A DNA stretch of 35,338 nucleotides from a virus (UHGV-0289455), one strand, 5' to 3'; counted from the first letter of the stretch, positions 4,209 to 33,868 are shown. Numbers and translations: made by a program. The notes: generated by a model not told the origin, from the letters alone.

Positions 4209-4737
4209 TCAGAAACGGTATCCGATACCAACAATAAATGCATCCGTTCGCCAGTCGCCACTACCGGAACCTTCATAAGCAATATCAATGGTCACGGATT
4301 CGGTCGGGTTAAACTGCACGCCAGCTCCCCACGCCAGAGACGTGTTGCTGTGGCGATCGTCATCACTTCCGGTCAGCACATCGTGCGTTTTCCCCTTGTT
4401 GTCAGTTACGCGGAGATAATCCCCGGAGAACGTCGACACACGGCTGTAAGCCACACCTGCCATCGCATAAGCACTGAACCATTCATTCACGCGCACAGAC
4501 GGCCCCGCCATTACGCTGAACCAGCGGTTACGCACGGAATCTTCATGCCAGCGTGTCCGTAAACTCATAACGGTATTTCACGTTAATCCCGTTCAGATCA
4601 TCGCTGCCAGGCATATCAGTATGGGTCTGAAGATACCCGGCGCTTAGTGTGGACTGATGCTCTGCTGCGCTCGCTGGCGTACCAGCGGCAACCAGCCAGA
4701 CTACTGCGGACAGAATAACAGCACATAATTTACGCAT
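4209..4737 (-). pseudogene. lom: lom outer-membrane protein, disrupted (internal deletion/frameshift)
   Basis: Two overlapping ORFs in different frames: 4543-4737 (signal peptide plus ...GINVKYRYEFTDTLA-stop) and 4209-4568 (...VMAGP...AYAMAGVA...IDIAYEGSGSGDWRTD...GIGYRF). Together they cover lambda Lom with a stretch of roughly 15 aa missing at the junction near 4545-4580. Confidence 0.6.
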
Positions 4738-4761
4738 AATTACCTCTCGCTTTTCTGCAAT

Positions 4762-4785
4762 AAAAAAGGCGCCATTTCTGGCGCC
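4762..4785 (-). terminator. rho-independent terminator downstream of J
   Basis: GGCGCCA/TGGCGCC stem followed on the minus strand by TTTTTT, 20 nt after the J stop and before the lom Shine-Dalgarno. Confidence 0.5.
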
Positions 4786-4804
4786 CGTATTGGGGTTATA
4801 AAAT

Positions 4805-7800
4805 TCAGCTAATCGTGATGCCTGCAGTGGCTTTCTTCATCACAACAACCAGCAAATCGCTGATACTTGCTGTGGGATACCAGCCATTTACCCACCATGC
4901 TGATACAGAAAACTCCAGCGTCATGTGGCCGCGACCAGCAGGCATATCAATAACACCACTGTAAACCAGCGTATTATCCATCGCGGTACGGTTATAAATT
5001 TCAGCACCGTTTTTCTTCACTATCAGGCGGCATGACGAATAAGTATCGCTGTTCTCCCGCTCATGTCTGGCACCGCTGAAAGCCACCGCCGGAATAACAA
5101 TCTGCCGGTTAAACGGCTGATCGTCATAAACCCTGACGGTAATGGTTCCTGATGGCCAACGCTTCGGTGCACGGGAGTCACGAGGGAAAGCCTTACCCAC
5201 TGTTTTAACGAGATCGCCTTCAATCTGGTTTGCAGACAGTTTCCCTCTGATGACACAGTTCTCGTTAATGGTGACATTATTGAGCGTGCCGGTATTCGCC
5301 GTGATGGCTCCACTGATATCCGCATTGCGGGCTGTCAGCCTGCCATCCGGCGTCAGGGAAAACGTCGGAGGATTGCCGGATGACGTGATGCTCACCGCAA
5401 ACAGTCGCTTCAGGAACACGTCGTTCATGAACAGCTGATTCCCCTGCGCCACAAACAGCGGCGTGGTGTTGCCGTTCTCCGGGGTAATCATCGCAATGCG
5501 ATCGGCCTGCAGCAGAATGTTACTCAGGGTCTGACCATCAACATCCTCAATCCCCACGCCAATCCCGGCCACATAGGGAATACCGTTTTTTGTTTTCTGC
5601 ACCTTCAGCATATACATGGCATTCAGCTCATTGCGCGTGTCTGACTGAACCCGCTGGATTTGCTGTATGGTCACGGCCTGGTCACCCAGTTTTTTATCCG
5701 TGGTCGAGGTAATTTCACTCCCTTTTTTATCCACGTACTGGCGGACCTGTGCTATCTGTCGGGCGTTTTCTGACTGCCCCTGGCTGACAGTCTGTGAGAT
5801 TTCACTGCTAACCCGGTCCACTTTCTGGCTCATCTGCGCGATGGCCAGTGTCTGGTCCTCATTCTTTTTCGCAACCAGCTGCGTGAGGCTGTTTTCCGCC
5901 TCCCCGATTTTCCGGGTCACTTCTGCGATATCCGTGTCCATCCGCTGACGGATGTCTTCTTCCAGTTGCGTGACCTCCGTACGCAGCGCTGAAGCATCAA
6001 TGCGCTCTTTCAGTGCCTGACCCAGAAGCGTCTCATCTATCAGCCCCCGGAAAATTTCCAGATACCCTTCACCATCATTGCTGGGCTGCCCGCTGGCTTC
6101 CACAAAAGCAGATTTTCCCACCAGGTTGACGCTTCGCACGTAAAACCAGAAATCCGTCCCCGGCTTAATCCGGCTCCCCTGGACAGTCCACTGACTGCCG
6201 GACCCCAGATAACGGGCAGATTTTTCCACCTGTGCCGTGTTCGTGATGCGTTTTTCTGAGAACCAGAATTCAAACTGTATCGTCGGATCATACACCGCAA
6301 GACGCGGGACCGCCGTTATCTGAAAATACCCCGGCGTCAGCTCAATGGTGGCGGGTTTTGCAGGTGCGTTAATCCGGAAGGTGGTGGTGGCAGGTTCACC
6401 CTGCTGGCCATAACTGTTTATCGCCCGCACCGTCAGGGTGTATTCCCCCAGTGGCAGGCCACTGAAACGGTGCTCCGTGTCTGCGGTGATGGCGGTGGTC
6501 ACCAGTCTGGCATCCGTTCCCTTACCACTGGTCAGGCGCAGACTGAAGCGCACGCCCTTCACCACCCGCGGCGTGTCCCATTTAGCCTGCGCCAGATACT
6601 GGCCGTCAGCTGCGCTCACCTCCACCGTCAGGTGCTGTACTGCCGGTGGGATGACGCTGTTCAGGGAGCCTGACTGCGGCTCAAAGCGGGCACCGTTATC
6701 CACGATGGCTTCTTTTTCCGGTACGTGCTGCACCGCCGTGATGGCAAAGGTGCCGTCCGTGTTTTCCCGGATGGAGACACAGCGGAACAGGCGACGGCGC
6801 AGTGACGGCAGGGAGAGTCCCCACACACCGTATGTCTCCACACCATCCGGCAGGGTGCTGACCTGTATCCGGTCAGGCGCGGGGTGTGCGGTGATGGCCA
6901 CGCTCGCCGGCTTACCGCTGCCGTTAATCAGATTAACAGTGGCCGTGCCGGTCTCCGGCAGTGTCACCTCCCGGTCCAGCGTCAGGATACGGCTGGCGGC
7001 ATCGATGGACAGGACACGTCCGCCGGTCATGGTCCCGGCATAGTCGTTATCACAGATTTCAATGATGTCACCGGGTGTGTGCCGCAGCCCCTGAGACCCG
7101 AGCGTGAAATCCACCGTCTGCGTTTCCAGCAGTTCGGTCTTTATCACCCACAGCCCGGCACGGTGGGCCTGACCGCGGCTGGTACAGCCGAACGCGTCCA
7201 TCTTCAGCAGGTTGCGTCCGTAGCGCAGTATGGCTTCCGGGTCTTCCACCAGTTCCGTGGAGGTCTGCCAGCCGTTCTGCGGGTCGGTGTAATTCACCTC
7301 CACCGCCGTGTGCCGGTCCTTCAGGGCACTGAAGCTGTAGCGGAACCCCACGCCGTTATCATCCACCACCACATCGCTGTTGGTGTACGGCCACACCACA
7401 TCCGACGGGCGGTCCTGAACGAACGTCAGCGTCTGACCGTTCCATACCGGCATACAGCGCATCGCAGAGCAGAAATCACTGAGAACGTCCCACGCCTTAC
7501 GCTGTTGTGCCAGGTACGCATTAAAGGTCATCCGCGGCTCGGTCCCCCCGAAACCATCCGGGACCGTCTGGTCGCAGTACTGCCCGATGGCATACAGCGC
7601 CCACTTGTCCACATCCGCCGCCCCCAGACGTTTTCCCATGCCGTAGCGCGGGTGAGTCAGCATGTCCCACAGGCACCAGGCCGGGTTGTTGCTGTATGCC
7701 GGTTTCAGACTGCCGTCCCAGATACCACTGTACGTGCGTTTTTCCGGGTCATAGTTTGACGGCACCTGGATGATGCGACCGCGGATATGGTAGTTCACCG

Positions 7801-17118: not shown

Positions 17119-18147
17119 TTATTTCACCTGTACCACCACAAACTCATCCGGATCCGGCAGCACCATCAGCGGTGCGGACTGCGTCATGGTGAATTCACGG
17201 GCCGGATCGCCCACAGTCAGCCAGTGTTTCGGATAACGGGAAGAGGCCACCACACCTTCGGACAACGCCTGCGCATCCTGAATGGCACCATAGCAACGAA
17301 TGCCCTCTGCTGCCGTATTCCCCAGGACCAGTGTGCCCTCCGGCAGATAACGTTTTTCGGTACCGTCCTCTGCCACATAAGACGTTTTCGCCACCACAAT
17401 GGCCAGATCGCCGTAATACCCCTTGAAGGACACCACTGCGCCCAGATCTTTCACTGCCGTTTCGAGTTGTGAATTTGAGCCGCGACGGGTATCCAGTTTT
17501 TCGCGGAACAGCTTAAAGCCATTCAGCAGACGCCAGACCGTACCGTCCATAATGGCGATATTCACAAGGCCGCTGGCCTGATCGCAGTAGAGGTCAATAT
17601 CATGCGTCGGATCAAACGTATCACGGTCCTGCTCAGACCATTTTTTACCGTCAGCCTGCTCAATGTTATTTCCTTCAGAGCGCCCGAAATCCACCTCGAC
17701 AGTATCAAACTGATCCCCTTCCATGGTGTATTTGCCATACAGCACGGCATTCACCGCCTGCATTTCTTCCACCTGGACAATGGCGTGCTCTTCCTGTTTG
17801 AGGTTATCGGTAATGATACGCAGACGACGGTAGGCTGGGTCGTTCAGCTGAGCCGGATCTTCACCAGGAAGGCGCTCAACCGCCTGCTGGTAATTAAATT
17901 CGTGTTTGGGCTTGACGTAGCCCGGACGTAACACGCGGGTTTCACCACCGCGATGGCGAAGCACTTTTCCTTCAACGATCGGGGAGACATAGGCCGCCAC
18001 CGGCGTTTTTCCGGTAATTTTGTCCAGCATCACCTCTTCGGTGTGGAAATTCACCGTACGGCGGAAAAACAGCTCCAGAAACAGCGCACGGAATTTAACT
18101 TTTTGTTCGGTATAACCGAGTAACTGGCGGGTCGTAAACAATCCCAT
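17119..18147 (-). CDS. E: major capsid protein E
   Basis: 342 aa, ...YVSPIVEGKVLRHRGG...PGYVKPKHE...RRLRIITDNLKQEEHAIVQVEEMQAVNAVLYGKYTM...TRRGSNSQLETAVKDLG...DPDEFVVVQVK is lambda gpE-like over its full length. Confidence 0.95.
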   Translation of the reverse strand: MGLFTTRQLLGYTEQKVKFRALFLELFFRRTVNFHTEEVMLDKITGKTPVAAYVSPIVEGKVLRHRGGETRVLRPGYVKPKHEFNYQQAVERLPGEDPAQLNDPAYRRLRIITDNLKQEEHAIVQVEEMQAVNAVLYGKYTMEGDQFDTVEVDFGRSEGNNIEQADGKKWSEQDRDTFDPTHDIDLYCDQASGLVNIAIMDGTVWRLLNGFKLFREKLDTRRGSNSQLETAVKDLGAVVSFKGYYGDLAIVVAKTSYVAEDGTEKRYLPEGTLVLGNTAAEGIRCYGAIQDAQALSEGVVASSRYPKHWLTVGDPAREFTMTQSAPLMVLPDPDEFVVVQVK

Positions 18148-18588: not shown

Positions 18589-20094
18589 TCATGGCATGGC
18601 CATGAGCATTTTCACGTCCGCATCACCGTCTGCTGACGTCTGTGACACGCCACCCCGCACCGCTGCCGGTGAATGATTCGCCATGAAATGTTCAAACAGG
18701 GCGGTTGTGGATGCAGAGACCGGTTCTGCTTTATCCGGCGATGAGGACAGAATGTCGCGGGCAGCCTCCACCGTCATTCCGGGAAACGCCGCCAGTTTTT
18801 CAGCCTGCGCCTCAGCCCCTTTTGCCTCATCCAGAGCCATGATCTGATCACGGAGTGAGGGTCCGGCATCCGCCAGTGGTGCAGCCGCCAGGATCGGGCG
18901 GGCTTTTTCCACCGTCATCTCCGGCATCGCCGCCAGCGTTGCCGCCAGTTGTTCACGACCTTTAGCCTCTTCACACGCCATAATGCGATCGGCTTCACTC
19001 TGCGTGGATGCCACCGGCTGCTGTGGTGCTGCCGCGGTCAGAATCGCCCGGGCCTGTTCAACGCTCATGCCCTGTTGTCCTGCCAGCATCGTGGCAAGGT
19101 GTTCACGTCCTTTCGCTTCCTGACACGTCAGGATCCCCATCACTCGCTGGTTCTCCTGCGCGGCAGCTTCCGTTGCAGTTAATTGCGGCATAGTGCCTCC
19201 TGTATCATGTGTGTTCAGCGCCGCAGCCATCACGCTGATGGCATCCGACGCATTGATTAATTCATCCGCCAGCCCGGCCTCAATGCCGGACTGACCTTCA
19301 AAAACGGCGGCCTCTGTTCCCGTGACTGCATCAACAGACAGACCGGTATACATCGCCACTTTTTCGGCAAACATCCGGCGCGCCGCATCAATCCGCTGCT
19401 GCATGTCCTGGCGAACCTCTTCCGGCAACGCTTCAAACTGATTGCCATCCACCTTGTGCGCCCCTGAGTAAATCAGCGTGATATCCACACCGGCCTGCGC
19501 CAGATGACCGGCATAGCTGACATGGCTCATCATCACGCCAATGGAGCCGATACGGGATGTCTGGGTAACCAGCCGTCGGGAGCAGGCCGACGCCAGCAGC
19601 ATGGCTGCAGAACAGGCCGTGTCATTGCACAGTGCCCAGACCGGCTTCTGCTGACGGAGTCGGTAAATCATGTCAGCACAGTCAAACGCACCGGCGGCCT
19701 GCCCGCCCGGACTGTCAATGTCCAGCAGTACACCCCGCACCTGGCTATCCGCCATTGCCTGCTGAAGACAGGCGACAATGCCGTCATAGCCTGTCATTCC
19801 GGAAAATGGCCGCATACCCCCCAGCCGGTGCACCAGCGTGCCTGTCACCGGCAGTACAGCAATACCGTTCACCACCCGGTAAACACGGGCCGGTCGTTTA
19901 CCTCCGGCCATGTACTCGTCCGTTTCAGCCAGCATTCCGGGAGCATCAAGCTGTACCTGCTGTTGTGGTACCGAAAGACTTGCTGCCCCCATCTCGCGCC
20001 CGAGCGCGCAAAAGAAAACCCGCGCATAGGCGGGCTCCAGAAGCAGCGGTTCATTGAATGCTGCTGCAATAATGTGTGAAAGATTACGTCTCAC
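18589..20094 (-). CDS. C: head maturation protease C (S49/ClpP-like), containing the in-frame scaffold (Nu3) region, with a triplicated C-terminal module
   Basis: 501 aa against about 439 in lambda gpC as I recall. The N-terminal two-thirds are lambda-C-like (NEPLLLEPAYARVFF..., TGSIGVMM...). The C-terminal third has three tandem 40-45-aa repeats of the motif EAKGRE..L...P.MTVE.AR.IL...P, which I remember as single-copy in lambda. Confidence 0.88.
   Translation of the reverse strand: MRRNLSHIIAAAFNEPLLLEPAYARVFFCALGREMGAASLSVPQQQVQLDAPGMLAETDEYMAGGKRPARVYRVVNGIAVLPVTGTLVHRLGGMRPFSGMTGYDGIVACLQQAMADSQVRGVLLDIDSPGGQAAGAFDCADMIYRLRQQKPVWALCNDTACSAAMLLASACSRRLVTQTSRIGSIGVMMSHVSYAGHLAQAGVDITLIYSGAHKVDGNQFEALPEEVRQDMQQRIDAARRMFAEKVAMYTGLSVDAVTGTEAAVFEGQSGIEAGLADELINASDAISVMAAALNTHDTGGTMPQLTATEAAAQENQRVMGILTCQEAKGREHLATMLAGQQGMSVEQARAILTAAAPQQPVASTQSEADRIMACEEAKGREQLAATLAAMPEMTVEKARPILAAAPLADAGPSLRDQIMALDEAKGAEAQAEKLAAFPGMTVEAARDILSSSPDKAEPVSASTTALFEHFMANHSPAAVRGGVSQTSADGDADVKMLMAMP
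18700..19150 (-). repeat. three imperfect tandem repeats (about 120-135 bp each) inside gene C
   Basis: Visible at protein level (CQEAKGREHLATMLAGQQGMSVEQARAILTAAAP / CEEAKGREQLAATLAAMPEMTVEKARPILAAAP / LDEAKGAEAQAEKLAAFPGMTVEAARDILSSSP) and as reiterated DNA segments. Confidence 0.7.
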
Positions 20095-21676
20095 GTGGTG
20101 TTGTCTCCTCTTCCGGCCTGCGACTCTCCGCTATCTGCTGCTGATACGCCTGCGCTATCCACACCGGACGTGAGAGTCCGGCTTTTTCCCGCTCTGCAGA
20201 TTCCCTGACCTGCTGGCGGAAAATGTCCTGATAATCCTCGCCCATCAGCGCCAGCTCTTTCTCATACGTGCTCAGTCCGGAATCAATACGCATCACCGAT
20301 TCCTGAACCTCCTTGAGCCCGTCAATGGCCATTCTTCCGGCACCAATCCACTCAGCCCGTGACCAGGCTGAACGCGCCTGATAAAAATCAAAACGTGCCC
20401 GTGGCGGACGAATAATCCCCCGAAGAAGTGCCTCTTCCAGCCAGCAGGAAAACATCTGCGTGGCCAGCCGGGACGCAATAAATTTTCGTCGTCCCATAAA
20501 ATAGCGCCACGACTCATTGGCGGAGGCGCGGGCACTTGAATAACTGACCTTCGAGTAATCACGGGACAACTGTTCGTAGGAAACACCAAGACCGGCGGCG
20601 ATATACCGCAGCAGCGCCTGTTCAAGCGCCGAAAATCCATTGTCTGAATCCTGCGCGGTCTGCAGTTTCAGATCATCACCAGGGAAAAGGTGCGGAATTT
20701 TGACACCGCCCAGCGTCACGTTATTCGTGTCATACCAGCTGGAGAACTTCTCCAGAATATTAATAAGCGGATTATCCTTCTGCCCCTGCGGCGCACCGGC
20801 GATATATTCAAAGGCCTTTTCGGTATCCAGTTCACTTTCAATTGTCGCTGCATACATCGCCTTGACAATGGCCGACTGAAGCTGTGTTGCCTGCAGGGAA
20901 TCGAGCATCTTCAGCCGTTCCATGACGCTGTAAAACTGGTTGGCCCCACGGGTCTGCCCGTCCTCCACCGGCTCGAAAATATGCAGCATGGCCGGACGCC
21001 CGGTGAGAAGTTCACGCGGGATCCGTTCCCATCGTCCACTCCCGGAGCGAGGAAAATCATCCTCACAGATATGGTACGCAACGGCACGACCATATCGATC
21101 GACCTCCACCCCGGCCCGCAGAAAACGGTTCCCGATACCATGTCCTGGCGTGTCCACCCGTTTCGGACTCACGGCTTTAAAACGCGTACGAAACAGTTGC
21201 GTGCTCTCCGTATCCCAGACCGGCTGCACAAAGATTTCGCCGTTAAACGCATGAACGCCCACACCTTCACGGATAAATTCCGTAAACGTGCGTTTCCCTT
21301 CCACGTCGATCTCACCAAACATCCCTTCTGCGTATTCTGACCAGGCCGCCTCCACCTCATCGACAAAACTTTTTGTCGCGGTCTCCCGCATCCCCAGCCA
21401 GCGCCAGTTCGGGCGGTAGCTGATAAGAAACATATGCCCGACAATGTGATCCTTATGCAGGGCCACCGCATTGGCCGCTATCCCGTTATTGCGCACCAGA
21501 TCATCTGCCCGGGCATTCCCCAGACGCAACGCGGGCAGCAGGGCCGCATCGGCACTCTGCGCCGGTGGCAACCACTCCGCCATTTGCCCGCCAAATCCTG
21601 CGCCGCCCCCGTTGTAGCTGAGGCTCTCCCGAAGCGGAACGCCGTTCACATCAATCAGGACAGGCGTTCGTTTCAT
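20084..21676 (-). CDS. B: portal protein B
   Basis: 530 aa, MKRTPVLIDVNGVPLRESLSYNGGGAGFGGQMAEWLPPAQSADAALLPALRLGNARADDLVRNNGIAANAV... essentially lambda gpB. Confidence 0.95.
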   Translation of the reverse strand: MKRTPVLIDVNGVPLRESLSYNGGGAGFGGQMAEWLPPAQSADAALLPALRLGNARADDLVRNNGIAANAVALHKDHIVGHMFLISYRPNWRWLGMRETATKSFVDEVEAAWSEYAEGMFGEIDVEGKRTFTEFIREGVGVHAFNGEIFVQPVWDTESTQLFRTRFKAVSPKRVDTPGHGIGNRFLRAGVEVDRYGRAVAYHICEDDFPRSGSGRWERIPRELLTGRPAMLHIFEPVEDGQTRGANQFYSVMERLKMLDSLQATQLQSAIVKAMYAATIESELDTEKAFEYIAGAPQGQKDNPLINILEKFSSWYDTNNVTLGGVKIPHLFPGDDLKLQTAQDSDNGFSALEQALLRYIAAGLGVSYEQLSRDYSKVSYSSARASANESWRYFMGRRKFIASRLATQMFSCWLEEALLRGIIRPPRARFDFYQARSAWSRAEWIGAGRMAIDGLKEVQESVMRIDSGLSTYEKELALMGEDYQDIFRQQVRESAEREKAGLSRPVWIAQAYQQQIAESRRPEEETTPRET

Positions 21677-29181: not shown

Positions 29182-31158
29182 TCATGCCGCGATGTCCGCG
29201 TTGTTCACTTCCACCTTCACACTGTCAATCAGCAGCGTATATGTCGCCGCCTTTGATATGCCTGTCAGTTGCAGTTTGTCCGCCGCCCCTGATGCCGGAG
29301 ATTTCACCAGTGTGAACGGCGTCCCCCGTTTCTCATCCAGTACCGGCGTCACCTGAATGCTGTTGTTTCCGGCAAACTCAAAAGCCAGTGTGTGCCATCC
29401 GTTATCAAAGACCCCGAACGTTTCCAGCTTCGCATTCGGCTTCTTGTGGTGCATCGCGTTCAGGTTCGTCGCATCCGTCTGCAGAAAGAAGGACATCAGC
29501 ATGTCGTTGCCTTCCTCTGCCAGCGTCACTCCCTCCGGCAGGGACGACAACTGCCAGTAAATGCCCAGGGCAAACTGATTCGGCACCAGTGAACCCGGCA
29601 ACTTAAACCGTACGCTCACACGTCCCCCCTTCTTCAGTAACTCCACTCCCTGTCCGGCTGCATCATGCTCCAGAAACCAGATGTGGTTTTCCGGTTTATT
29701 CAGTTGCAGGGCCTTACCTCCCGTAGCCCCCGCATCACTGACCACCGCTTCAGCAATGTTTTTGTTAACATTGTCTCCGCTCGCCGGTTTGTGATAATAG
29801 CGCCAGCCCTGTGATGCCAGGTCTTCGCCGGACGCCAGCAGACTCATCAGGGTTCGGTTACTGACCGGGGCTTCCGGCTCTCTCTCCGTACCTTCACCGG
29901 AAGGTCCGGTGGGCTTCACCGTATCAGGCTGTTTTCCGGTAATGAATTCAGCGTTTCTCCCGGCATGCACAAGAATCGCCGTTGCCAGACGGTCGGAAAT
30001 AATCCCACGACGTGCCCATGATCCAAAATGCGTTTTACGGTCAGCCGTCGTCCAGGTTTTGGCGTCCGTTCGACCACCGGCTCCGTAATACCCAATATCC
30101 GCAACATCCGGATCTTCTGACGGCTCGTTGGTACCCACATTTCGCCCGTTTTCATCCGTCATAAACGGCACAAAGAAGATTTTTTTTGCGGATTTCGTCT
30201 TGTATGCACCATACACCGCATCGTATTGCGAAGAATAAGTCTGCTTCCAGTAGTAGGTCGTGTCGCCACAAATCCAGGGAACCGATGACGGAGAGCCCCC
30301 GAGACACTGACCTCCGAATTCCGACAGGTCAGAACGATATTTTTCCACCATGGAATCAAACAGCCCCGGCTGGGTGGCGTATGCACCCTGTTTCAAATCA
30401 AACTCGCCCTGCATCCAGACCACTGCAAGCAGAATATTTTTAGGGTTGGCCTTCAGTGCGGCCTGAGTACGGGTAAGCAGGTCCTTGTACAGTGGCTTAT
30501 CTACACCCCAGCGTGCCGAGGTCTCGCTTGCGCCGGTGGATTCGCTGAAGGTACCTTCATCGCCCGCCAAAAATGCAGAACCACCACGGCAGCACGGAAC
30601 CAGAAGAATACCGGCATTCGCCGGAATAAACGGCAACAATTTCTTCGCGATATGTAATCCCTGCCCCACGCATCCATACTGAGCTGCACTGGCTTTCGGG
30701 TGTGAAAACTTACTCAAATCCTGAACATCATGCAGGCAGTGGTCCGCAGGAATAATGTCATTGTAGTTACAGAACGCACCACCCGGCGTGACAGTGCTGC
30801 GACGCGCCAGCTGTTTAATACGCGGGTCCGGACGGTCATATGTCTCCGGCAGCGGAAGCCCTTCACCATACGCCATACCGTTTGACTGCCCGGCCAGGGC
30901 AACAACAAAGTAATACTCCGGGTTGCTGGTGGTGCTGATAACTGCGCCTTCTCCATCCGACGGCTTCACCACCACAGGTGTGGTGACATCACCTTCCGCC
31001 GCAATGGCCTGCATCAGGGTATAAGGCGTGATGGCCACCGGACTGCCAAATGGCTGCCACCCCTCCTTCAGTTTTTGTGTCAGTCGTTTCGCAAGGTCTG
31101 ACGGCGATGCCGCCCTGACAACATCATAGTGTTTAAATGCCATGGTTCTTTCCACCAT
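29182..31158 (-). CDS. nanS-p: prophage-encoded sialate O-acetylesterase NanS-p (DUF1737 N-domain, SGNH/SASA esterase domain, C-terminal carbohydrate-binding region)
   Basis: 658 aa. N-terminus MAFKHYDVVRAASPSDLAKRLTQKLKEGWQPFGSPVA is the DUF1737 signature, followed by VVALAGQSNGMAYGEG (SGNH GQSN motif). Sits between the Q/tRNA region and the holin, as in Stx-phage-like prophages. Confidence 0.85.
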   Translation of the reverse strand: MVERTMAFKHYDVVRAASPSDLAKRLTQKLKEGWQPFGSPVAITPYTLMQAIAAEGDVTTPVVVKPSDGEGAVISTTSNPEYYFVVALAGQSNGMAYGEGLPLPETYDRPDPRIKQLARRSTVTPGGAFCNYNDIIPADHCLHDVQDLSKFSHPKASAAQYGCVGQGLHIAKKLLPFIPANAGILLVPCCRGGSAFLAGDEGTFSESTGASETSARWGVDKPLYKDLLTRTQAALKANPKNILLAVVWMQGEFDLKQGAYATQPGLFDSMVEKYRSDLSEFGGQCLGGSPSSVPWICGDTTYYWKQTYSSQYDAVYGAYKTKSAKKIFFVPFMTDENGRNVGTNEPSEDPDVADIGYYGAGGRTDAKTWTTADRKTHFGSWARRGIISDRLATAILVHAGRNAEFITGKQPDTVKPTGPSGEGTEREPEAPVSNRTLMSLLASGEDLASQGWRYYHKPASGDNVNKNIAEAVVSDAGATGGKALQLNKPENHIWFLEHDAAGQGVELLKKGGRVSVRFKLPGSLVPNQFALGIYWQLSSLPEGVTLAEEGNDMLMSFFLQTDATNLNAMHHKKPNAKLETFGVFDNGWHTLAFEFAGNNSIQVTPVLDEKRGTPFTLVKSPASGAADKLQLTGISKAATYTLLIDSVKVEVNNADIAA

Positions 31159-31403
31159 CTGAAAAATAATTCTTTAAAATACCTGACATGTAATACAGAA
31201 AAAACACAAAACCATACCTTAAATAAAAACCTCATCATCAAGCAGATATGCATGGATAAACTACAAGACGAGATATAAACCACCCTGCATTTAAATAAAC
31301 AATAAACAACATCAGAAAAATAATTCTGCTCTATGGTTTACATTCAAAAATATCATTTATACTTTTCAGAACATCACCAGCAAGACATAAACAAGGAGAC
31401 TAA

Positions 31404-31739
31404 ATGAAGTGGATTGTGATTGATACAGTTATCCAACCATCATGCGGAATATCTTTTTCAGTCATATGGAGTAAAATAAAATTAATAATCTGGTATCAAT
31501 CGGATGCTTTCTTACCTCCTGAAAGTATATTTACACTGACTCACACAGGTATCATGCTCAATAACAAAGTGCTACCTGTAACCATTTACAACGTAGCACC
31601 ATTCAATAAAACATTCTGGAATTTAATCAAAAACAGCCAGGAATGTCCTACAAATACAGATAACGTATTGAATGAATGCTTTAATAACCGTTGCACTCTG
31701 CAAATATGTCCTTATGGACTAAAACAACAAAGTCCATAA
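31404..31739 (+). CDS. hypothetical protein encoded on an AT-rich moron, opposite to the late operon
   Basis: 111-aa ORF with a canonical AAGGAG Shine-Dalgarno 7 nt upstream; the surrounding segment (about 31160-31760) is conspicuously AT-rich; GC-rich hairpin at 31781-31803 downstream. Cysteine-rich C-terminal part. Confidence 0.5.
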
Positions 31740-32186
31740 GGAGTTTACTCACATCTGACAAAATCAATATAAACAGCCCCTCCGGAGAGGGGCTGGAGAG
31801 TGGCGCTATGTGCCATTGCATGGTGCCGGGTGCCTCCCGGTGAATTCAGTACCAGCACCTGAATCCGCGATTATCCCATATACCTACTCGCTGATTGCCC
31901 CTCCGCACAGGGGGATTCACCATGCCAGTTTCTTTTAACAAACTCCCCGCAAACCAGACAACAGTCAACCGCCTGAATTGTGAAGTATTTAAAAATTTCT
32001 CCCGCTAACTGATACCCGGCTAACAGTCTGGCGTTTTCTTTTTCAGCAACGGGAAAGCAACAACCACCACACCCGCCACCAGCACACCGTCAGCCAGCAC
32101 TGACATTATCCGGCTGCTGCAATGCCACTCACAAAAACAGTAAGCAATCACTTTTTACCGTAACAAGTGATAATCCAGATATGTAT

Positions 32187-32540
32187 CTACCCCAGATGAG
32201 TAATCCGAAGTTCATCCATACCACAGGTACTGGCTATTCTGTTGTACTCCTGAACAAGAGCAAATAATTCTGAATTAGCAACCATGAACTCATCGCAAAC
32301 CCTCTGTATAGCATCACTATTCAGAATAATAACGTCTCTTCCCGAAAGACGATCAGGAGTACAGAACAAAACTGTCAAACGGCTGAAGGCCTTTGCTCGT
32401 CCTGCATTGACTATATCAATACGCTGCCTAAGGATGAAACACCCCGACGCCTCATCAATATTCACTCTACCCACACCATATGAATGATAAATATTTAATG
32501 CTGAAAAAACCATTAGACCGTATAACAAACACTCAATCAA
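32187..32540 (-). CDS. hypothetical protein in the stx-equivalent slot (weak call)
   Basis: 117-aa ORF starting with TTG (first ATG at codon 10), no convincing Shine-Dalgarno; low GC. Confidence 0.25.
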   Translation of the reverse strand: MIECLLYGLMVFSALNIYHSYGVGRVNIDEASGCFILRQRIDIVNAGRAKAFSRLTVLFCTPDRLSGRDVIILNSDAIQRVCDEFMVANSELFALVQEYNRIASTCGMDELRITHLG

Positions 32541-32653
32541 TACTTAACAGAACTTTTATTTTTGACAAACATAAAATATTTTCAACAATATCCTGAGCCA
32601 GGTATATTTCAGTATAAGGCTCTGCCGGAAGGAATCTGGAAGAATGAATATAG

Positions 32654-32727
32654 CGCGCTGTACTGGATTCGAACCAGTGACCGATTGCTTAGAAGGCAAT
32701 TGCTCTGTCCGGCTGAGCTAACAACGC
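32654..32727 (-). tRNA. tRNA-Arg (anticodon UCU)
   Basis: Minus strand GCGTTGTTAGCTCAGCCGGACAGAGCAATTGCCTTCTAAGCAATCGGTCACTGGTTCGAATCCAGTACAGCGCG: cloverleaf with a GTTCGAATC T-loop and a TCT anticodon loop; CCA not encoded. Confidence 0.85.
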
Positions 32728-32827
32728 TGAATACCGATAATGGACCGCCATCGGGGACCCGCCCCCGCACCAACAACCCTGTTATCGTGTCGTCTGCTCT
32801 TCCTGATAAGCTAATGGCGGTTTGTGA

Positions 32828-32903
32828 TGGTGGCCCTTGCTGGATTTGAACCAGCGACCTGGCGATTATGAGTCGCTCGCTCTCACCACTGAGCTAAAGG
32901 GCC
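32828..32903 (-). tRNA. tRNA with CAU anticodon (tRNA-Ile2/Met type, ileZ-like of Stx-phage tRNA clusters)
   Basis: Minus strand GGCCCTTTAGCTCAGTGGTGAGAGCGAGCGACTCATAATCGCCAGGTCGCTGGTTCAAATCCAGCAAGGGCCACCA, with encoded CCA; resembles E. coli ileX as recalled. Confidence 0.85.
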
Positions 32904-32942
32904 GGGAGCAGAATAATAACGGTCCGTAATTAATTCCGCAAT

Positions 32943-32964
32943 AAAAAACCCGCTCGGCGGCGGG
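32943..32964 (-). terminator. tR'-like rho-independent terminator downstream of pR'
   Basis: Minus strand: stem cccgc/gcggg followed by TTTTTTATT. Confidence 0.6.
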
Positions 32965-33013
32965 TTGTAGAAACTCTTCTAACGTCAGGCATAAAAAGCC
33001 CATTGTTATGACG

Positions 33014-33041
33014 AATTTACCACAGATTCCGGAAAAATCAA
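33014..33041 (-). promoter_or_regulatory. late promoter pR' (TTGATT, 16-bp spacer, TAAATT) immediately after Q
   Basis: Minus strand ...TTGATTtttccggaatctgtggTAAATT...; lambda pR' has TTGACT/TAAATT as I recall. Lies 0-30 nt downstream of the Q stop. Confidence 0.6.
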
Positions 33042-33046
33042 CCTTG

Positions 33047-33868
33047 TTACCTAGTTACCTTTTTTAACTGCCGCTCAGCCCATGCTTCTTCAATATCAAA
33101 CCGGGTCACCAGCGCATCATAGAATTTCTTAACTGTTTTTTCCCATGACGCGCGTGTTATCTGGTTTGTCACCTCGCATATAGCATTAAATGCCTCCGTT
33201 GATGGTAGTCTTTCATAGCCACGACCACCACAACGCTGGCAGTCTCTGATAACAGGCATACCACGTTTTACCGACTCTTCACGATGAATGGCGACACCAC
33301 GCCCACGGCAATCCTTACAGGCGGTGGAAACCTCACCCTTTCCGCCACACTCCGGACAGGCAACTTTTACCACCTCCCTGACTTTTTTCCATTCTTCCCA
33401 GTAAGACGAATACACACCTTTCGTACACTTTGCCCATACCGGCGGCTTACCATCCGGATACTGGACCTTGTTTGTAAAAACTACGCTTTCAATAAATTTT
33501 TCCCCATAGCAACAAGGGCACTGCTTTTTACTCGCTGCGCTGCGGGCATAATCCTCAAAAGCGTACGAAGCCATAATGCGCATCACTACCGGTTTTATTT
33601 CTGCCGGAAGTTTTCTCAACGCCGCCACACGATCGCACCGACTGAGTGCATAATCTGCCAGTAATTCTGTTGCCCGCGCCCTGTCATTCATACTGATGCC
33701 CATTTTCCCCAGGAACGCAGAAAAACCCATCTCAGCCCGATTCTGTGTCATGCCCTGCGCGGCCATCACATCAGTGATACTCAGCGCATCTTTTGACGTT
33801 GAGGCCGATGCATCGGTCAGGCCAGGGGATTTTGGGGAGTAGTATTTCGGTAAATCTTCCAGTTTCAT
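33047..33868 (-). CDS. Q: late antiterminator Q (zinc-finger Q family, QuuQ-like)
   Basis: 273 aa with four CxxC pairs (CPCC, CPEC...CKDC, CQRC); located immediately upstream of pR' and the tRNAs. Confidence 0.7.
   Translation of the reverse strand: MKLEDLPKYYSPKSPGLTDASASTSKDALSITDVMAAQGMTQNRAEMGFSAFLGKMGISMNDRARATELLADYALSRCDRVAALRKLPAEIKPVVMRIMASYAFEDYARSAASKKQCPCCYGEKFIESVVFTNKVQYPDGKPPVWAKCTKGVYSSYWEEWKKVREVVKVACPECGGKGEVSTACKDCRGRGVAIHREESVKRGMPVIRDCQRCGGRGYERLPSTEAFNAICEVTNQITRASWEKTVKKFYDALVTRFDIEEAWAERQLKKVTR

Follow-up and report, generated by a model that had tools for sequence, protein, structure and literature searches.

Phage lambda encodes its prohead protease and its scaffold as a nested pair. 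The protease, gpC (439 aa; NC_001416, gene C at 4418–5737), is of the S49 type and co-terminal with the scaffold gpNu3; Nu3–Nu3, Nu3–C, Nu3–B and Nu3–E interactions have been published, and the model in which C becomes fused to E has been called controversial (PMC3224144). The corresponding pair in phage 21 consists of gene 5, whose product gp5 is the head-tail preconnector, and the nested gene 6, whose product gp6 is the scaffold. In the GenBank record 'Bacteriophage 21 head gene operon' (M81255.1), gene 6 is preceded by its own putative ribosome-binding site (RBS) and contains three repeat_region features, the 'Tri1 box', 'Tri box' and 'Tri3 box', each noted as 'function unknown; putative'. 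A later complete genome of phage 21 (OL657228.1) names the two products 'capsid protease/scaffolding protein' and 'scaffolding protein'.

We analysed a 35,338-nucleotide (nt) stretch of DNA from a virus (UHGV-0289455), hereafter the window, which as a whole is the late region of a lambdoid prophage, comprising Q, lysis, terminase, head, tail, J and tail fibre genes. The reading frame at 18589–20094 is, with high probability, the phage-21-type form of the nested lambda C/Nu3 genes, carried by a lambdoid E. coli prophage, with the three-module scaffold region shared with phage 21. This assignment is based on an S49 domain, on gene order and on identity with phage 21 gp5, the gene that carries the annotated gene 6 and Tri boxes. 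The gene, its protease domain and its neighbours are as follows.

18589..20094, minus strand: prohead protease/scaffold gene, an open reading frame of 1506 nt encoding 501 aa; homologue of lambda C and phage 21 gene 5
19216..19659, minus strand: core of the S49 (SppA-like) peptidase domain, aa 146–293 (Pfam PF01343)
20084..21676, minus strand: portal gene (gpB type), directly upstream and overlapping the start of the protease gene; Phage_portal_2 in homologous loci, and annotated in NZ_CP032201
18205..18552, minus strand: head decoration gene (gpD or phage 21 shp type), directly downstream; 93.9% identity with phage 21 Shp
17119..18147, minus strand: major capsid gene (gpE or phage 21 gp7 type); 94.7% identity with phage 21 gp7 and 62% with lambda gpE

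The 501-aa protein matches the Pfam family Peptidase_S49 at 1.6e-35 (122.8 bits, against a cut-off of 24.9), and end to end it matches PHROG 53, head maturation protease, at 1.8e-226. SppA structures (PDB 3rst/4kwb) match aa 77–289 with E of about 1e-16, and in this alignment Ser162 falls opposite the serine of the SppA 'AASGG' stretch, which we take to be the SppA nucleophile. The head genes, all on the minus strand, are arranged as portal, C, D and E, an arrangement also found in homologous loci and annotated records. Together with the place of the gene between the portal and the decoration and capsid genes, these matches bear out its identification as a lambda gpC homologue in a preliminary description of this DNA. 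The gene is 94.6% identical to phage 21 gp5 and 99.6% identical to its counterpart in phage PhiR12_2_star. The hosts listed in phage records with protease genes 98–99.6% identical to it are E. coli C or K-12, suggesting that the 21-type gene belongs to viable phages. Naming varies among records: NZ_CP032201 (annotated by PGAP; gene at L074:19001–20506) labels the protein only 'S49 family peptidase' and carries no annotation of the nested scaffold gene, and in some phage records the whole protease gene is named 'head-tail preconnector protein Nu3'.

The nested scaffold gene begins at an internal start codon with a well-placed Shine-Dalgarno (SD) sequence.

19196..19201, minus strand: SD sequence AGGAGG of the nested scaffold gene, read directly; a putative RBS is annotated in phage 21, and the element is present in lambda
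18589..19191, minus strand: nested in-frame scaffold gene (200 aa) corresponding to lambda Nu3 and phage 21 gene 6, with ATG at 19191 and an SD sequence; co-terminal with the protease gene, with homologous coding sequences in M81255.1 and OL657228.1

On the coding strand the scaffold start reads ACAGGAGGCACTATG, that is, AGGAGG, a spacer of 4 nt and an in-frame ATG at 19191, which make up the strongest internal SD and start pair in the protease gene. From these signals, the 200-aa scaffold, which holds all three modules described below, is predicted to be made separately from the internal ATG. The overlap between the repeat region and a Nu3-type frame proposed in the preliminary description is thus confirmed, as the predicted start at 19191 with its AGGAGG matches the start of phage 21 gene 6. 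At the homologous position of lambda (NC_001416 5332–5344, opposite window 19189–19201), the sequence likewise reads AGGAGG, 4 nt and ATG, at 5342; translation from this ATG, the exact counterpart of the starts at 19191 and of phage 21 gene 6, would yield a scaffold of 131 aa. In RefSeq, lambda nu3 starts at 5132 (201 aa), with a GGGAG 14 nt upstream as its only SD-like sequence.

Three similar modules and a non-repeated tail make up most of the C-terminal region.

19021..19152, minus strand: module R1, aa 315–358, the lambda-type copy with the RVMGIL..EAKGRE form; covers the phage 21 'Tri1 box' (19021–19124)
18871..19002, minus strand: module R2, aa 365–408; covers most of the phage 21 'Tri box' (18874–18984)
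18730..18861, minus strand: module R3, aa 412–455; covers the phage 21 'Tri3 box' (18730–18843)
18592..18729, minus strand: non-repeated C-terminal tail, aa 456–501 (46 aa), delimited by alignment with lambda; one predicted helix, ending in ...KMLMAMP

In a BLOSUM62 self-comparison of the protein, R1–R3 are in register, each about 44 aa long, with periods of 50 and 47 aa. Their pairwise local scores are 99, 98 and 69, compared with 21–23 ± 4 for shuffled sequences (z = 12–17), and none of 2000 shuffles approached the real values. The three tandem copies that had been noticed in the last third of the gpC homologue are therefore real, and the motif quoted for them, EAKGRE..L...P.MTVE.AR.IL, matches what is present. 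The range first assigned to the repeat, 18589–19150, needs correction: the modules do lie there, but 18589–18729 is the non-repeated tail with the stop codon, and R1 begins at 19152. Identity between the copies in DNA is just 50–61%, and neither Tandem Repeats Finder nor a seed-based repeat finder reported an array at the modules, so the repeat is a protein-level feature and not a DNA repeat. That the module descends from the helix-turn at the C-terminal end of the S49 domain (AEKVAMYTGLSVDA compared with AEKLAAFPGMTVEA) was considered and found unsupported: z was 4.4 against one module only, there was no similarity to the other two, and the HMM score was negative.

Lambda gpC carries a single module, at aa 358–401, and both alignment and a module search found it there only, in agreement with the statement in the preliminary description that the module is single-copy in lambda. 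The two proteins share an S49 protease, a co-terminal nested scaffold, gene order, one homologous module and an SD sequence and ATG at the homologous position, with a global identity of 46.5%. Lambda differs in having one module, a 36-aa linker rich in Thr, Ser, Ala and Gln upstream of it, and a shorter, different tail; the ...KMLMAMP end is placed opposite lambda ...LNTPV in the alignment, with proline as the sole invariant column. The extra length of about 60 aa claimed for the protein was accurate (501 against 439 aa), and the gap of 62 aa corresponds to two extra modules with their linkers plus a longer C-terminal tail, minus the lambda-only 36-aa linker. A candidate decayed second module in the lambda tail was rejected, as its local score of 28 was reached by 784 of 2000 shuffles.

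With phage 21 the agreement is nearly complete. Both consist of a 501-aa protein and a nested 200-aa protein, with an internal RBS and start, three modules at the same positions, and portal, Shp/D and gp7/E genes as neighbours. Because the two genes align without gaps, the boxes of M81255.1 (5542–5645, 5682–5792 and 5823–5936) can be placed directly on the window, at 19021–19124, 18874–18984 and 18730–18843; they fall within R1–R3 except for the first 6 nt at R2. The triplication is thus already known: the phage 21 record has carried its annotation since 1993, and three modules are the usual state of the gene in its phage-21 form; the novelty implied in the preliminary description does not stand. 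This prior description consists of the feature table of M81255.1. The two genes differ by allelic differences only, mostly at the end of the third module, which reads ARDILSSSPDK in the window and ARAVLAAGSGK in phage 21. Relative to phage 21, synonymous divergence is higher in the modules (dS 0.26) than in the protease part (dS 0.057), and this, with the third-module end, suggests a mosaic joint within the gene.

The preliminary description also raised the possibility of an assembly artefact, in which the second or third copy would have arisen as an assembler's expansion or collapse of a repeat. We exclude this reading, to which we give a vanishingly small probability. With the copies so diverged in DNA, without a long exact repeat and without any array found by Tandem Repeats Finder, an assembler has no near-identical DNA to mis-join. 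Of 5426 complete E. coli genomes, 1866 (about a third) matched at least 80% of the length of the gene, and one of these, from strain AR_0086, carries it with 100% identity; a 74-nt probe for the middle of R2 found this part intact at 2844 places in 1807 genomes. Among phages, the full protein occurs in 18 records at 85–99.6% identity, and the three-module stretch is ungapped in all 20 records with the scaffold region, which are independently sequenced and include the Sanger record of 1993. The sole doubtful case is a four-module variant of 551 aa (P0108), which has N at both junction-equivalent positions. As to the searches themselves, the 200-aa scaffold used as a query gave mostly fragments, and the full-length query was needed; small stand-alone module proteins were found on contigs of 0.9–1.4 kb.

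The triplication is of long standing, widespread and preserved in the protein sequence. The nearest relatives of each window module are the same-position modules of phage 21; the next nearest for R2 and R3 are the same-position modules of Salmonella Gifsy-1 (STM2605), and R1 has 73% identity with the first Gifsy-1 module. These position-by-position matches indicate that the triplication is older than the phage 21 and Gifsy-1 lineages. STM2605 has three modules in the same order and 65.5% overall identity; it differs in its shorter linkers, its different and slightly longer tail and its other host genus. The end of module 3 in the window is closer to Gifsy-1 than to phage 21. Among species-representative genomes with a gpC homologue, one module occurs in 25, two in 1 (Buttiauxella) and three in 5 (E. 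coli, Shigella, E. albertii, Trabulsiella and Providencia). Of the cluster representatives (50% identity, at least 105 aa) in which the module occurs, 76 have one copy, 3 two and 5 three. The module is also the sole part of the scaffold region held in common with lambda and with most of the 116 clusters that a search of 1.8 billion representative proteins gave.

Selection on the modules was assessed against Gifsy-1, with dN/dS values of 0.10 for the modules, 0.13 for the protease domain and 0.45 for the linkers and tail, all approximate because dS is near saturation. All three copies appear to be maintained by protein-level selection. The same comparison bears on a reading of the repeat as a DNA or RNA element, such as a set of regulator sites or a structured RNA, instead of a protein feature. 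OL657228.1 does mark two 'transcription factor CII' binding sites within gene 6, but these reflect nothing more than agreement with a short, degenerate consensus, the similarity between modules lies in the amino acids with synonymous sites near saturation between lineages, and no Rfam family matches at the modules; we consider a nucleic-acid element very improbable. The two CII sites (L002:2409–2422 and 2643–2656) were annotated purely by the pattern ttgynnnnnnttgy and are probably chance matches; the second maps inside module 2, around window 18939–18952.

An AlphaFold2 model of the 200-aa scaffold, built on a shallow alignment of 20 sequences, shows one short helix followed by two helices in each module, with pLDDT of about 80–85. 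The linkers have pLDDT below 65, the pTM is 0.29, and a tail helix lies at residues 160–172 of the scaffold, the rest of the tail being modelled with low confidence. The model reads as beads on a string, with the modules as independent small helical units on flexible linkers. A Foldseek search of the PDB with this model gave no fold match at E ≤ 0.001 (best E 2.3, probability 0.04), and a phmmer search of the PDB with the scaffold part gave nothing below E 1.8.

Elsewhere, phage P2 gpO and herpesvirus UL26/UL26.5 are nested or fused protease–scaffold systems, and the P22 scaffolding protein has a C-terminal helix-turn-helix domain that binds the coat. The principle in these systems is that the protease enters the procapsid by way of a scaffold domain, either shared or fused, and that small C-terminal helical units touch the coat; their protease families differ from the S49 type. 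To our knowledge, a tandemly triplicated unit is not known in P2 gpO, UL26/UL26.5 or the P22 scaffold. The Foldseek and phmmer comparisons with the PDB did not show similarity of the modules to a helix-turn-helix coat-binding domain of the P22 type, although a functional analogy is possible.

The module is the sole segment of the scaffold conserved among lambda and the 21 and Gifsy types and is constrained like the catalytic domain, which makes it the best candidate for the essential contacts of the scaffold. We propose, tentatively and with a probability that is even at best, that it acts as a multivalent interaction unit of the scaffold and of the targeting tail of the protease. Each module would be an autonomous helical unit on flexible linkers of Pro, Ala and Gln, and would serve as the conserved interaction unit of Nu3-type scaffolds, through self-association, binding to the major capsid protein or portal, or both; the published partners of lambda Nu3 provide the candidates (PMC3224144). 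The 21-type scaffold would then be trivalent and the lambda scaffold monovalent, and the three units may tether the protease inside the assembling prohead until the scaffold is degraded by the protease.

Degradation of the scaffold also suggests another role, in which the repeats would multiply the recognition or cleavage sites of the protease, making removal of the scaffold efficient ahead of DNA packaging. Lambda gpC degrades both the scaffold and itself (PMC12617516, PMC3224144), and the repeats and linkers fall in the degraded part. Cleavage sites are, however, usually short and placed in exposed linkers, whereas here the helical core is conserved and the linkers are variable, and lambda manages with a single copy; we regard multiplied cleavage sites as unlikely.

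Close relatives in bacterial genomes provide a series of in-frame alleles with 2, about 2.5 and 4 modules. A 482-aa allele lacks 57 nt of module 2, lost between two CTGGCGGC octamers; a 451-aa allele has a 150-nt deletion that creates a hybrid of modules 1 and 2, with GCCCG at the junction; and a 452-aa allele has a 147-nt deletion with CACCGCAG at the junction. The 551-aa allele mentioned above would have four modules through a 150-nt duplication, and is doubtful because of the N at both junction-equivalent positions of its record. Microhomologies at the junctions of these deletion and duplication alleles are 5–8 nt long. The 482-aa allele is widespread, with 3592 blocks in the index, and occurs with an intact-looking head module; a junction probe placed it in up to 70 complete genomes, a count that is probably sound but is taken as an upper estimate because joining of the probe halves also occurred in the phage collection. 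The corresponding junction-probe counts for the 451- and 452-aa alleles in complete genomes were confounded and set aside, as the 451 probe also aligns at 91% to intact R2 and the halves of the 452 probe were joined across the intact gene. No deletion or duplication allele was found in the phage collection. A distant E. coli lineage (P0024) has four modules, of which modules 2–4 are 79–87% alike, a pattern that points to amplification or homogenization within that lineage.

The existence of alleles with 2, about 2.5 and 4 modules, some of them in intact-looking head modules, indicates that three copies may not be strictly required. The extra modules might be tolerated padding, in which unequal or microhomology-driven recombination has enlarged a flexible region where only length, or nothing, matters. 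The beads-on-a-string model, the microhomologies at the natural in-frame deletions and duplication, the spread of the 482-aa allele and the sufficiency of one module for lambda are all consistent with this. Against it, module dN/dS equals that of the catalytic domain and lies far under that of the linkers, three position-matched modules have been retained across genera, the deletion alleles are without any phage record in the collection, and the 452-aa allele examined comes from an O157:H7 prophage with a truncated capsid gene. On balance we find padding doubtful, and retain the module as an interaction unit as the preferred reading.

A more speculative extension of the interaction-unit reading, to which we assign a similarly low probability, is that the number of Tri modules sets the valency of the scaffold and can evolve. 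An effect of copy number on the stoichiometry of the scaffold or of processing, suggested in the preliminary description, is likewise conjectural. In-frame deletions and duplications arising through microhomology would yield alleles with 1, 2, about 2.5, 3 and 4 modules, and the number of modules would alter the binding of capsid protein by the scaffold and by the tail-tethered protease, tuning assembly fidelity or protease dosage. If this is true, the allele series in E. coli prophages is a ready-made experiment on how Nu3-type scaffolds work.

As a discovery the triplication carries little weight, having been annotated since the early 1990s in what is among the commonest of E. coli prophage head genes; only the natural allele series and the constraint measurements are mildly new. 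The series from one to four modules, combined with the strong constraint on each module, offers a cheap route to finding what the core of lambda-type scaffolds binds.

Elsewhere in the window, the late regulatory region (29182–33868, minus strand) is Stx-phage-like, but without a toxin-sized open reading frame. Strain AR_0086, whose C gene is identical to that of the window, is yet annotated differently from Q to lysis, with a DNA methyltransferase gene and no esterase-like gene. The features of this region in the window are:

33047–33868, minus strand: antiterminator Q
32828–32903, minus strand: tRNA-Met(cat)
32653–32727, minus strand: tRNA-Arg(tct)
31765–31954, minus strand: match to the STnc100 small RNA, 132 bits
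29182–31158, minus strand: DUF1737/SASA/DUF6645 esterase-like gene

Several homologues met in the searches have unusual origins. Phage D2 joins a lambda-type N-terminus of about 100 aa to a 21-type remainder. Lambda-type C genes (54% identity with the query over the same residues) occur on short or very low-coverage contigs (coverage about 0.6–1) of unrelated taxa, among them Neobacillus, Kitasatospora, Shewanella, Leeuwenhoekiella, Oceanobacillus and an Akkermansia metagenome-assembled genome, and most likely reflect contamination of these assemblies with lambda DNA. A Gifsy-type three-module scaffold (P0238) shows systematic changes of Ala to Val, Pro to Leu and Arg to Cys or Trp; C-to-T converted (bisulfite-like) reads would produce this pattern, and it is not a real divergent homologue.
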